Part shown: positions 1 to 24,991 of the stretch, piece after piece | Layout: every line of letters starts with the position of its first letter | Position numbering within the stretch: position 1 is the stretch's first letter | The notes under the pieces: generated by a model | Told to the model about the DNA's origin: nothing | The model's database searches: none | Seen by the model: only the letters and a program-made list of their open reading frames with translations | Made by a program: the position numbers and the translations under genes | Virus record (IMG/VR): IMGVR_UViG_3300028591_000128 | Location: 32,001 to 96,000 of that record | Length of the DNA: 64,000 nt | From: a virus | Taxonomy: Duplodnaviria; Caudoviricetes | Strand: one strand, 5' to 3'

Positions 1-57
1 TTAGAAGTGGTGGTATTCTGCCGAAAATTGGATAAAGTGTAGCACACTCTGTTTTCT

Positions 58-799
58 TTTTGATACCTATGTAATTCCATACCTAAACAAAACATTATTC
101 CAAGCCAATTAAATCATCCTCTCATTTGACACCTATGTAATTTAATCATCAATCAAAACTTCTGATAAATATGCAGTTGGTGGTCATGATTTGATACCTG
201 TGTAATTTCATAGTTTATCAAAACTATAACGTATTACCATTGAGTTTGACTATGTTTGATACCTATATAACTTTGCAGTCTGTCAAAACCGGTATCTTAC
301 CTAAGCCGTTTTCCACAGGTTTGATGCCTATGTAAACTCACAGTCTAACAAAACCAAGATGTTCCTGTCGATGCCATCAAGGAAGTTTGACATCAGTGTA
401 ATTTCATAGCCCAACAAAACTGATAAGCAAATAAGACGAAAATGCCGCTCAGAGTTTGACACCTATGTAATTTCACAGTCCAACAAAATCCTCAGACAAA
501 TACCTGTTCGACACCTGTGTAATTTCATCGTCTACCAAAACTCCACAATGATTGACTTGAAATACCCCTTCGTTTGACACCTGTGTAACTTCATGGTTCA
601 ACAAACCGAACCGCTATCCAAATTACGCTTAGTTTGACACCCGTGTAATTTCACAGTTCATCAAAACAACATATGCATGGGAAATGGAGCCGCCAACGTT
701 TGACACCTGTGTAATTTCACAGTTCAACAAAACGAATATGCGCTGGAACAGTTCTATCAGAAAGTTTGACACCCGTGTAATTTCACAGTCCAACAAAAC
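58..799 (-). CRISPR. CRISPR array: 12 repeats of 36 nt (minus-strand consensus GTTTTGTTGAACTGTGAAATTACACAGGTGTCAAAC) and 11 spacers
   Basis: Repeats read at 58-93, 124-159, 189-224, 254-289, 319-354, 385-420, 454-489, 506-541, 572-607, 632-667, 698-733, 764-799. Spacers are 30,29,29,29,30,33,16,30,24,30,30 nt and unique. Repeats degenerate progressively toward low coordinates, which places the leader at the 800 end. Confidence 0.95.
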
Positions 800-806
800 C
801 TCAAAT
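800..806 (-). promoter_or_regulatory. ATTTGAG leader-repeat junction (type II-A leader-anchoring-like motif)
   Basis: Plus strand ctcaaat abuts repeat 764-799, so the minus strand reads ATTTGAG|GTTTTG. This is the junction known from S. thermophilus CRISPR1-type II-A arrays. Confidence 0.7.
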
Positions 807-818
807 CACACGTATTCA

Positions 819-908
819 GTTTTGACAGAGCATATTTACAAAGGCTTGGTGAGTGTGTTATAGATTGGATGTTCAATCATACCTCACCTTAAGGCCGTCA
901 AATCGGCC
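819..908 (-). ncRNA. Scaffold A: putative tracrRNA for the array (hairpin with AUUUGA loop, GGUGAG/CUCACC stem, anti-repeat)
   Basis: Minus strand reads GGCCG-ATTTGA-CGGCC ... GGTGAG ... CTCACC ... TGTAAATATGCTCTGTCAAAAC. The last part (819-840) is complementary to the repeat 5' part (GTTTTG...TTACA), and the loop is complementary to the repeat 3' end TCAAA. Confidence 0.7.
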
Positions 909-976
909 CTGTATATTAAATTTTATATTTGAATTTAACAGATTCTTCTGATTTTCATACACCTCCAGGGCCAGTG

Positions 977-1007
977 GTTTGATGCTTATGCTATCCATAG
1001 TTTCAAC
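977..1007 (-). repeat. Solitary degenerate CRISPR repeat
   Basis: gtttgatgcttatgctatccatagtttcaac aligns with the array repeat gtttgacacctgtgtaatttcacagttcaac. Confidence 0.5.
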
Positions 1008-1123
1008 ATTTGACACCTATGCAATCATGATAGTTGAATCATGTAGGATTGCAAGAGCTTAGTGAGTGTGTTACAGACAATGCTGAGACCATCCTGCCTC
1101 ACTTTACGGCTGTCAAATCAGCC
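1008..1123 (-). ncRNA. Scaffold B: second copy, fused in cis to a repeat half (single-guide-like)
   Basis: GGCTG-ATTTGA-CAGCC hairpin and AGTGAG/CTCACT stem, then a TGCAATC..CATGAT / ATCATG-ATTGCA hairpin running into TAGGTGTCAAAT (repeat 3' end). Confidence 0.65.
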
Positions 1124-1147
1124 GGTTAGTATAATAACAATTCTGCC

Positions 1148-1186
1148 GCTTGATATCTATGTAATTATCTGTATTCCATCAATAAC
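1148..1186 (-). repeat. Solitary degenerate CRISPR repeat
   Basis: gcttgatatctatgtaattatctgtattccatcaataac retains ttgaY..ctatgtaatt and the terminal aa.aac of the array repeat. Confidence 0.5.
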
Positions 1187-1274
1187 TTTGATATCTACTT
1201 AGACATAGACTCGGTGAGTGCGTTATAAGCAAGAAAAATCTGCTATGCAACACCATAAGGCTGTCAAATCAACC
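1187..1274 (-). ncRNA. Scaffold C: third copy, overlapping the stop codon of the Cas12f-like gene (omega-RNA-like position)
   Basis: GGTTG-ATTTGA-CAGCC pairs only on the minus strand, through a G:U pair. It is followed by a GGTG..CACC stem and a short ATGTCTA/TAGATAT hairpin ending in TCAAA. Confidence 0.6.
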
Positions 1275-2603
1275 AATTACCGTCATATTTTTAGCCTTAT
1301 TATAGGCATGACTTATCGTTTTACCGCAATGAGGACAAGTGAATGATACTTCCTGTGTCCACTCGAATACCTTCGGAATGACTTCTTCTGTACAGAATAC
1401 TTCTCCACATGAACTACATACATTCCGGACTGTCCGAAGAACATCAGTCTTTTTATCTGTCTTATCAGCCATCTTACTTGTGGTTACAACAATACCCTCA
1501 CGTTCTGCCTTATAGGTAATGAACTGCACCAACTGATAATAAGACCAATTCCGGAGCAATACCGGGTAATCATCAAGATCAGACTTCGTTACGTCTTCTA
1601 CAACGATAGCTGATACTTTATTCTCCTTTGCAAACTCTACAACCATTTTACTAAGATTATGGTTATATGTCTGCACATAATTCTTCTCGTAAGATTTATG
1701 TGTTTCAAGTTTTGCCAACTTCTTTCCACGACCATGCCCACCATTGGAATACTTTAAAGCTCTCTGAAGATTCTCAAAGTGGATCTGAATGTCCTTGCGT
1801 TTTGCTACAAGATCATTCTTTATTGATCCACCAATCTCATGTTCATCATCATCTGTAGAAAGTGCGGCAACAAGACATTTATCATATCCAAGAGCAAGTC
1901 CCATGATCTTACCATGTTCAGGTATATATTCTTCTGCATCCTTCTCAATCTTAACGGAAAGATTTAAAATTATCTTACCTTTGTTCGTGATTTGAATCGT
2001 GCTACCACAAACCTTATAATGTTCTGGATCGGTTACAATAGATTCCAAAAGTGATGGAAGGAACTTATCCGGACTCTTATTCTTACCTGCACCAAGATAC
2101 AGCTTGAAATGGATTCCGTTTACAAACTTAAAGAAATAGGCATTTACTGTCTTTTCCGTTCCATCATCTGTAGTGTATGTATCATCACCAGTATAAATAG
2201 TAATGAATCTGCTTGGAACCATAAGTGGGAAATCTCTTTTGTAAAATGGTAGATTCCGCTCACCCTTTGCAAGTCCATTCCTCAATGCTATGGAGAAATC
2301 CTGCTTTACTTTCATACCACAGTTACCAGCCATACCCAAACCCTTTGCCTGTTTCATATCATATATGGCGGTATTTGTGTTCCGGAAGATCATCTTCATC
2401 TCTTCCTTGAAGTTCGGATCGTTGAAATTCTTATCATACTTATAATACAGGCATCCAACCTGTGACATATAAGTATTCAAGATACAATACTGATTGTAGA
2501 TCCCATCACGAAGGTACTGATATACCCTATCCCGTTCTTCTTTATCACCTACCGGGAATAACTGAATCTTCTTCGTTGTGATTGTAGTTGTTTTCTTCTG
2601 CAT
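1269..2603 (-). CDS. cas12f: Cas12f/TnpB-family RNA-guided protein, predicted nuclease-dead (444 aa)
   Basis: Cas12f1-like motifs GGHGRGKKL, YNHNLSKMVVEFA, IVVEDV, RNWSYYQL..YKAEREGI and a CxxC...CxxC zinc finger. RuvC-I reads MGLALG (A237 in place of D) and RuvC-III reads SHAYNKAKN (A433 in place of D). E336 is retained. The gene is adjacent to the CRISPR array. Confidence 0.85.
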   Translation of the reverse strand: MQKKTTTITTKKIQLFPVGDKEERDRVYQYLRDGIYNQYCILNTYMSQVGCLYYKYDKNFNDPNFKEEMKMIFRNTNTAIYDMKQAKGLGMAGNCGMKVKQDFSIALRNGLAKGERNLPFYKRDFPLMVPSRFITIYTGDDTYTTDDGTEKTVNAYFFKFVNGIHFKLYLGAGKNKSPDKFLPSLLESIVTDPEHYKVCGSTIQITNKGKIILNLSVKIEKDAEEYIPEHGKIMGLALGYDKCLVAALSTDDDEHEIGGSIKNDLVAKRKDIQIHFENLQRALKYSNGGHGRGKKLAKLETHKSYEKNYVQTYNHNLSKMVVEFAKENKVSAIVVEDVTKSDLDDYPVLLRNWSYYQLVQFITYKAEREGIVVTTSKMADKTDKKTDVLRTVRNVCSSCGEVFCTEEVIPKVFEWTQEVSFTCPHCGKTISHAYNKAKNMTVIG

Positions 2604-23986: not shown

Positions 23987-24991
23987 TTAAGCTATCTTAT
24001 TCTCTGCGAAAAATTTTCCTAAATTTGCATCTCTGGTTACATCAGAATATACTTGCAACATAGTTGCAGAATCCCAGTTCACCATATCCATAATGATATC
24101 AAGTGGAACATTCTGTTTAATGAGCATAGTTGTAAAATAATGTCTGATACTATGCCAATAGAAATCTTTTCCAAGTATTTTTGTAAAATCATCTGCCCAA
24201 TGATTTAATGACTCTATTGATAGTGGTTTATTGTGAAACTTATAAGATACAAATAGACAATCTCCACGAATCTTGTGTTTCTTATAATCTTCCATAAGAA
24301 GATCAAAGTAAGGCTTGAATTTATCTTTCAACACATATAGATGAATCTGTTTTCCTTGTACTCCTCTACCTTTCGTTTTGATAGGATTAGTAGACTTCCA
24401 CAACGAATCATAAATCACATTTTCATCTTTGAAGTCAGAAATCTTGAATCTAAATAATTCTGATTTTCTTCTACCAGAATACATAGCCAATGCTAACGCC
24501 GCTGCCTGCCGAATCCTATCATGTGCTACAAGATAATCCAGTAGTCCGTTTAATTCATCTTCTGTAAATACAGTTTTCGGTAGAACTTTTTTAACCGGAG
24601 GTGAATCTATCTGCTTTACAATATTCTTATACCCAGGATACTCATCATCCAAAATCTTTTCAATATAAGTAGACATAGTAGAAAGTGCAGACTTTACACA
24701 ATGCATCCTACTGGATGACCAATTCAATGTGTAGAGTGCGTAATCTTGAAACCGAATAAAATCACGTTTTGTAACCTTCGTAAATTCCTTATTACAATTA
24801 TGTATCAAGTTATACACAAAGAATGCTTCGATATTTTTCTGATACTCATAGATAGTAGTCGGTGCTCTGTCAATAGACTTCATGTAAGATAAGAAATCAC
24901 GAAGTAGAAATTTGTTCTCCGGTTTCACTAATTTCAAAGAGTTCTCATCAGTTAATGGATTTTTCTGTACTTTTCTCGCCATAAGTATCAC
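23987..24991 (-). CDS. Tyrosine recombinase (XerC/D-like)
   Basis: SGRRKSEL (R), KTKG (K), HSIRH (HxxR), VNW and QVY (catalytic Tyr). Confidence 0.85.
   Translation of the reverse strand: MILMARKVQKNPLTDENSLKLVKPENKFLLRDFLSYMKSIDRAPTTIYEYQKNIEAFFVYNLIHNCNKEFTKVTKRDFIRFQDYALYTLNWSSSRMHCVKSALSTMSTYIEKILDDEYPGYKNIVKQIDSPPVKKVLPKTVFTEDELNGLLDYLVAHDRIRQAAALALAMYSGRRKSELFRFKISDFKDENVIYDSLWKSTNPIKTKGRGVQGKQIHLYVLKDKFKPYFDLLMEDYKKHKIRGDCLFVSYKFHNKPLSIESLNHWADDFTKILGKDFYWHSIRHYFTTMLIKQNVPLDIIMDMVNWDSATMLQVYSDVTRDANLGKFFAENKIA

Follow-up and report, generated by a model that had tools for sequence, protein, structure and literature searches.

A nuclease-dead Cas12f of a large rumen phage as a candidate RNA-guided silencer of an AbiL-type defence operon

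Why should a phage keep a CRISPR effector that apparently can no longer cut DNA, together with an array of guides for it? This question is raised by gene P0001, which encodes a Cas12f-like protein near one end of a 64,000-nt stretch of DNA (hereafter the window). The window corresponds to bases 32001-96000 of the 106,310-bp IMG/VR record IMGVR_UViG_3300028591_000128, which belongs to a large rumen phage. We analysed the protein and its relatives, the scaffold RNAs and arrays that accompany the gene, and the DNA sequences matched by the spacers. Our best explanation, which comes from computation only and which we consider probable, is that the phage uses a nuclease-dead Cas12f (dCas12f) to silence an AbiL-type defence operon of its host, or of a prophage, by RNA-guided binding without cutting.

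The dCas12f gene occupies window positions 1269-2603 on the minus strand and forms an uninterrupted open reading frame (ORF) of 444 aa without an internal stop. As originally predicted, direct reading of the codons gave Ala at both RuvC aspartate positions, namely, codon 237 of RuvC-I (GCT, in MGLALG; 1893-1895, minus strand) and codon 433 of RuvC-III (GCC, in SHAYN; 1305-1307, minus strand). The RuvC-II Glu at codon 336 (GAA; 1596-1598, minus strand) and a CCCC zinc finger (Cys396, 399, 423 and 426) are retained. The protein matches the Pfam family Cas12f1-like_TNB (E 3.7e-7), and its nearest solved structures by sequence are RhCas12f (9nzp, E 1.7e-49) and CnCas12f1 (8hr5, E 3.1e-40), the sigma-linked dCas12f 9n9c being much farther away (E 7e-17). 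In the HMMER alignment to solved Cas12f proteins, A237 and A433 coincide with catalytic aspartates, those of GVDLG and of NADYN (the latter in CnCas12f1, 8hr5), and E336 coincides with the RuvC-II Glu. The AlphaFold2 (AF2) model, with a predicted local distance difference test score (pLDDT) of 85, has CnCas12f1 and AsCas12f as its top fold matches (Foldseek against 8hr5, E 1.7e-25). The protein thus shows the Cas12f1 fold, with WED, REC, RuvC and zinc-finger TNB domains, and lacks the intact RuvC D-E-D triad of the Cas12f1 nucleases.

The loss of both aspartates is not peculiar to this phage. In a MAFFT alignment of P0001 with 120 database homologues (121 sequences), Asp was found at the first aspartate position in 52 sequences and at the third in 55. 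In homologues down to approximately 35-40% identity, the first position is A, S or V and the third is S, A, R or G, within motifs that are themselves conserved among the dead homologues (MGLAMGYDK and DYSYNKAK), while relatives at 40% identity or below carry GVDLG and NADFN. The maximum-likelihood tree separated 63 dead cluster representatives, with 100% support, from 52 D-E-D proteins and three sporadic mutants. The dead-clade proteins are compact (about 420-475 aa), their CCCC zinc finger is invariant, and most of the fold is conserved. Among four close relatives, the ratio of nonsynonymous to synonymous divergence (dN/dS) was 0.02-0.05 at dS 0.34-0.59, indicating strong purifying selection. 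Because dN/dS is this low and the aspartates are lost clade-wide, we rejected the reading of P0001 as a decaying gene; to judge from these alignments, it is an old, maintained, non-catalytic form.

Genes of the dead family also turned up in two other settings, a conjugative or integrative element and one context that looks chromosomal. At the latter (L008, 5825-7780), the dead-clade gene stands between RecO, GlyRS and PPDK genes on one side and Imm33 and thymidylate synthase genes on the other; scaffold modules flank it on both sides, and its array is young, with near-identical repeats. Intact relatives (GVDLG/NADFN, about 38% identity) are carried by dozens of large gut-phage contigs of 90-167 kb in IMG/VR (L095-L152), so that active and dead forms of the Cas12f lineage are both common on big phages.

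To which DNA are the guides directed? Downstream of the dCas12f gene and on the same strand lie three scaffold copies (approximately 1279-1201, 1128-1049 and 913-836) followed by array 1 (58-799), with 12 repeats, each 36 nt long, and 11 intact spacers, A1-A11; the array and scaffolds described in the original prediction were thus confirmed. In a BLAST search of array 1 against five Lachnospiraceae genomes, spacer A11 (94-123, minus strand) stood out, matching 25/26 nt from its first base in the rumen Lachnospiraceae metagenome-assembled genome RUG11200 (G006). Among 401 Lachnospiraceae genomes this was still the top match, and the remainder fell in repeats or at repeat-spacer boundaries, at noise level. 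The matched site lies on the sense strand, 82 nt past the start codon of a gene for a 178-aa protein, and has the 5' flank TTTG. Spacer A7 (355-384, minus strand), together with its orthologues in two relatives (G001, a phage genome of 253,527 bp rated complete, and L011), matches 23-25/30 nt of the same gene, on its antisense strand and close to its 3' end. Two independent spacers therefore match opposite strands of one 534-nt gene.

The matches were compared with those of shuffled sequences. Over the 12-kb target locus, four matches at six or fewer mismatches of 29 were detected, against none in 30 shuffles, and over the whole 40.8-kb target contig the A11 and A7 matches were the only ones at seven or fewer mismatches, with shuffles giving 0.3 per run. 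Both protospacers fall on the most conserved motifs of the target protein (LIFGEDDLIGLEPYH and PDxLVDAIKEY), the only position among the first 26 nt of A11 that does not match changes a Leu codon synonymously, and the 5' flanks, TTTG for A11 and TATA for A7, are T-rich and conserved over alleles. As sequence features, these fit genuine protospacers. The genome with both protospacers (G006, L014) also encodes an active Cas12f relative of 38% identity.

The other searches gave no comparable target. Self-regulation was rejected, since the spacers of the window phage and of G001 matched neither the 106-kb record nor the complete 253-kb relative beyond chance, which in this search meant four or more mismatches in 20 nt. 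No targets were found for the arrays among INPHARED phages and PLSDB plasmids. Array 2, which lies to the left of the window, and the arrays of G001 and L161 each gave only noise from repeats or AT-rich leaders when compared with about 400 Lachnospiraceae genomes. Exact 20-24-mers of A1, A2, A7, A8 and two leader-proximal spacers returned sister arrays or nothing from IMG/VR, as did an exact-word scan of JGI metagenomes with A7. One further candidate, a 26/31-nt match of G001 array spacer 11 over the ribosome-binding site and start codon of rpsB in a single Lachnospiraceae genome (L226, 1504-1534; G286), would be a host-shutoff target if real; we judged it to be a chance match because its E is about 1e-3 per genome over 401 genomes and it has no T-rich flank.

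The start of the matched 178-aa ORF overlaps the stop of an upstream gene for a 394-aa ATPase, which was identified as AbiLi by PADLOC (E 1.5e-41) and as AAA_21 by Pfam (E 2.8e-15); its ATPase assignment is firm. A helix-turn-helix (HTH) gene and a type I restriction R subunit gene adjoin the AbiL-like pair, which, as annotated, lies in a defence island. The 178-aa family has more than 1000 database members, and in all loci read that have an intact upstream gene, that gene is the ATPase. The family is patchy among Lachnospiraceae (23/401 genomes) and is also present on 19 IMG/VR contigs. Profile hidden Markov model (HMM) searches gave no annotation for the 178-aa protein. Its AF2 model (pLDDT 88) showed weak fold matches to PH0156 (Z 8.1), the Toprim-containing C-terminal region of OLD (Z 5.9) and GajA (Z 5.3), no significant match was detected in the PDB by Foldseek, and a protein atlas offered DUF4276 and RloB as leads. 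On the basis of the model, we tentatively assign the protein to the Toprim fold and, equally tentatively, regard it as the effector-like subunit of a two-gene defence system of the AbiL/OLD type. At neither the DNA nor the peptide level did any other spacer match the AbiL ATPase gene, the hsdR next to it or anything else on the contig. The AbiL-like operon is likewise unmatched by spacers from more distant members of the family, and the IMG/VR alleles of the 178-aa gene are too diverged to offer a better spacer match.

From these observations, we infer the following mechanism, from assembly of the ribonucleoprotein (RNP) and its protospacer-adjacent motif (PAM) to repression and the benefit for the phage. 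The dCas12f, of the type V-F lineage, would be loaded with guides from several scaffold-plus-mini-array transcription units, and the RNP would bind matching DNA, without cleavage, where a T-rich motif adjoins the site. Among the guides, at least some would be aimed at the AbiL-type gene pair, namely, the AAA_21 ATPase and the small Toprim-like protein that accompanies it. Bound within the gene of the Toprim-like partner, the complex would stop RNA polymerase, less effector would be made, and the phage, or its long-term carriage, would thereby be shielded from AbiL-type defence. The original prediction had proposed a programmable, non-cutting DNA binder acting on host or competitor genes; that proposal is supported here and is sharpened to a host or prophage defence operon, with binding, non-cleavage and repression as its conditional parts.

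Several points weigh against this explanation. Neither match is perfect (at best 26/30 and 25/30), from which it follows that the exact target is not the genome sampled here; an allele with a perfect match was looked for and not found. Just two of about 40 distinct spacers have a target, and exact-word scans with five spacers of the lineage led to sister arrays only and with a sixth (L011) to nothing. The A11 match alone came from about 1.2 Gb of searched sequence, in which 25/26 is not vanishingly rare; the case for targeting thus rests on the second match in the same gene. Flanks of only two protospacers (TTTG and TATA) do not define a PAM. Both matched sites lie inside the second ORF of the operon and not at its promoter, and repression leaves existing defence protein in place, which is a problem for a strictly lytic phage. 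The retention of E336 makes residual chemistry possible. Finally, the spacers of the window phage and of a related fragment (G002) differ at 4 of 509 nt, and the contrast with a synonymous difference proportion of about 0.26 in the dCas12f gene is only suggestive because the locus is mosaic.

If the protein binds without cutting, its guides might instead serve interference with rival mobile elements, as in Cas12m, and the defence operon would then be matched only as cargo of those elements. We consider this unlikely, although the distribution of the target agrees with it: the 178-aa family often stands beside mobile-element genes (Tn916-Xis, HTH and toxin-like neighbours) and occurs on 19 IMG/VR contigs. 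The carriage of some dead family members by a conjugative or integrative element, or in the chromosomal-looking context, points in the same direction, and so does the turnover of the arrays. Old spacers form a core common to the relatives, whose arrays differ mostly at the leader end. Array 2 of G002 (L188, IMGVR_UViG_3300021426_000149) has one leader-proximal spacer more than array 2 of the window phage, and an exact duplicate of the repeat flanks it, as in immune arrays. By its repeat structure, this extra spacer is a signature of acquisition in a lineage that encodes no Cas1; consistent with the original prediction, cas1 was not found in the window phage record, in the complete 253-kb G001 or in G002. 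Against interference with mobile elements, however, both matches fall within the one 534-nt gene and nowhere else on the 40.8-kb contig, they lie on the most conserved motifs of that gene, and the guides are kept between phages that have diverged to dS of about 0.6. These results suggest that selection is directed at that gene and not at any one element.

The part of the spacer that is conserved is also informative. In 20 groups of orthologous spacers, variation affects 3 of 339 sites within positions 1-17 and 12 of 236 beyond them (Fisher p = 0.0025, for a position-17 cut-off picked after the data were seen). Conservation over the first 17 nt or so fits the 20-bp R-loop observed in Cas12f structures (10.1101/2025.08.14.670346).

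The scaffolds from which such guides would be produced are arranged as modules. Module A (1124-1279, minus strand) overlaps the 3' end of the dCas12f gene and contains a P1 hairpin with an ATTTGA loop, a GGTG.../CACTCAC stem, one degenerate repeat and a guide slot of about 24 nt. Module B (971-1123, minus strand) is fused to a degenerate repeat, which is followed by short remnants of repeat ends. With these fusions, modules A and B look like single-guide RNAs. Module C (800-908, minus strand) is tracrRNA-like, has an anti-repeat and compensatory changes in P1, and leads directly, through a leader, into array 1, the repeats of which degenerate with distance from the dCas12f gene. To the left of the window, a fourth scaffold, D (L002, 18397-18508), is followed by array 2 with six repeats (L002, 18039-18396). 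An alignment of 15 scaffolds showed a hairpin of 5 bp, in which compensatory changes occur and the loop, ATTTGA, is invariant and complementary to the 3' end of the repeat, and a common GGTGAGG/CACTCAC stem; seven pairs show double (compensatory) changes, and the anti-repeat pairs with the 3' half of the repeat. The locus thus appears to have the parts expected of Cas12f1, namely, a same-strand downstream array and a tracrRNA with an anti-repeat. At all family loci examined, the gene is followed by several scaffold-plus-mini-array modules, and occasionally one module lies upstream. No Rfam family was found for the scaffolds, and a scan for sigma-70 promoters performed no better than on shuffled sequences.

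Could the protein still cut? A nuclease or nickase that works with E336 and other residues in a rearranged RuvC site, or by recruiting a host nuclease, would make the locus an ordinary CRISPR weapon of the phage. The E336 equivalent is indeed kept in most of the dead clade, and rearranged RuvC sites have been documented for TnpB and Cas12 (PMC10691335). However, throughout the 63 clusters, small or polar non-acidic residues take the place of two of the three metal ligands, some dead subclades have lost the Glu as well (to Q, K or D), and no substitute acidic residue was found among the invariant or nearly invariant alignment columns. We therefore regard residual nuclease activity as very unlikely.

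The conservation of the guide apparatus bears on another alternative, in which the protein is a decoy or dominant-negative anti-CRISPR that poisons the Cas12f dimers of the host or soaks up its guide RNAs. Cas12f acts as a dimer (10.1101/2025.08.14.670346), and active relatives of about 38% identity are present in Lachnospiraceae genomes, including G006, the genome with the protospacers. A decoy, however, needs no arrays of its own, whereas scaffolds, repeats and the first 17 nt or so of the spacers are conserved here, and 38% identity together with different repeats makes mixed dimers or sharing of RNA doubtful. A decoy function is accordingly highly improbable in our estimation.

The surroundings of the locus are relevant to the possibility that dCas12f has a partner. 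The original prediction had noted no adjacent sigma factor or transposase, and this absence was borne out over the family, since none of the family loci examined has a conserved protein neighbour of these or other kinds. As candidate partners, the small ORFs upstream of family members were rejected because they are unrelated to each other. One of them, a called 53-aa gene at L164 (7809-7970), is a translated CRISPR array (repeated VLDTYEFTQVSN) and not a protein. The array and any downstream partner had also been placed at the window edge. The locus does continue to the left, where the sequence contains, in order, a TnpB element, scaffold D and array 2. The TnpB element (L002, 18560-19990) lies just left of the window, with its insertion point immediately beyond TCAAAA, the 3' end of array 1's last repeat; its gene (L002, 18629-19918) encodes 429 aa with D, E and D all present (NCBIfam guided_TnpB, E 8.5e-56), and the protein looks active from its sequence. 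Its left end (window 1-57, minus strand) interrupts the last spacer of array 1, and the apparent 12th spacer (28-57) is most likely part of that end. We regard TnpB as an insertion into the last spacer because the close relatives L011 and G001 lack it at this site; G001 has related copies elsewhere. The end of the repeat may have served as the target-adjacent motif of the element.

Beyond the locus, PHROG matches to head-tail adaptor, tail and tape-measure proteins and endolysins identify the record as that of a phage. A tyrosine recombinase gene (Pfam Phage_integrase, E 1.2e-18; 23987-24991, minus strand) lies about 21 kb from the dCas12f locus, and the 253-kb relative also has one. In a jumbo-sized phage, this gene hints at lysogeny or dimer resolution; as judged by homology, it leaves room for a long-term association of phage and host. 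A search of the phage for ParB found none. The TnpB element and the recombinase, along with the precedent of other dead type V proteins (PMC13472631), are what favours a dCas12f that recruits another activity (transcription activation, transposition or recombination), as sigma-E dCas12f or Cas12k do, but we see a very slim chance of this, as no neighbour is conserved, close relatives lack the TnpB insertion, about 21 kb separate the recombinase from the locus, and the sigma-linked clade is a different, C-terminally truncated lineage.

Silencing of the AbiL-type operon by dCas12f can be compared with known systems. The locus resembles those of Clostridia Cas12f1 (RhCas12f, 9nzp; CnCas12f1, 8hr5) in protein size, zinc finger, downstream array with tracrRNA-like scaffold, and lack of adaptation genes. 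It differs from the Cas12f1 nucleases in the clade-wide loss of both RuvC aspartates, the several scaffold-plus-mini-array modules per locus, the carriage by phages and mobile elements, and the match of guides to a defence gene. Large Cas12f branches with altered catalytic sites have been described in surveys (PMC10691335), and phage-borne Cas12f-like genes have been published as candidate nucleases (PMC12297358).

A functional parallel is TldR, a prophage-encoded, nuclease-dead, TnpB-like RNA-guided repressor of a host gene (10.1101/2023.11.30.569447; PMC13418256). In both cases, a phage encodes a nuclease-dead protein of the TnpB lineage with an RNA guide matching a host gene, and with TldR the principle of a phage-encoded RNA-guided repressor of a host gene is already known. 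TldR uses a single omega-RNA-like guide and acts on flagellin promoters, whereas the phage dCas12f is derived from Cas12f, is accompanied by arrays of 12 and 6 repeats with signs of turnover among the spacers, and matches sites inside a defence ORF, not a promoter.

Similarly, the sigma-E dCas12f of Bacteroidota, which is linked to rpoE and activates genes by RNA-guided binding (PMC13472631; PDB 9n9c), is a nuclease-dead descendant of Cas12f. In Flavobacteriia, this protein has the motif IAEASLSLE and has lost RuvC-III and the C-terminus, whereas the C-terminus of the phage protein is full length, and the linkage to a gene for an extracytoplasmic function (ECF) sigma factor, rpoE, with a C-terminal extension is absent from the phage dCas12f family loci. 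Because the motif differs and the C-terminus is missing, sigma-E dCas12f represents a separate loss of the aspartates. The same study describes a separate array-linked dCas12f cluster, with an example from Chitinophagaceae, whose guides are sometimes directed against efflux promoters (PMC13472631); it may be the phage clade or distinct from it. Cas12m (type V-M) is likewise a type V effector with an impaired RuvC and protects by binding rather than cutting (PMC11013384). It is a distant fold match of the phage protein (Foldseek E about 1e-8) and provides host- or plasmid-borne immunity against invaders, whereas dCas12f is carried by a phage and its matched target is a defence gene. In the literature, we found no description of the dead clade or of dead-Cas12f guides directed against defence genes.

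The counter-defences of phages are mostly dedicated inhibitor proteins, one for each defence system. With a nuclease-dead CRISPR effector and its array, a phage would instead have a programmable, heritable and possibly updatable means of shutting down host immune genes. It may even be, as a tentative extension, that phages and mobile elements of gut and rumen Firmicutes carry dead Cas12f with an updatable guide library that silences many defence systems, the spacers being captured from host immune genes, probably through host Cas1-Cas2 acting in trans. Silencing by dCas12f would extend the natural CRISPR interference-like systems (TldR, Cas12m and sigma-linked dCas12f) to a large clade carried by mobile elements, and the dead clade would be a source of compact, naturally binding-only Cas12f scaffolds with native guide RNAs. 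If this reading is true, the investment of the phage in silencing marks the small partner of the AbiL-type ATPase as a functional anti-phage effector.

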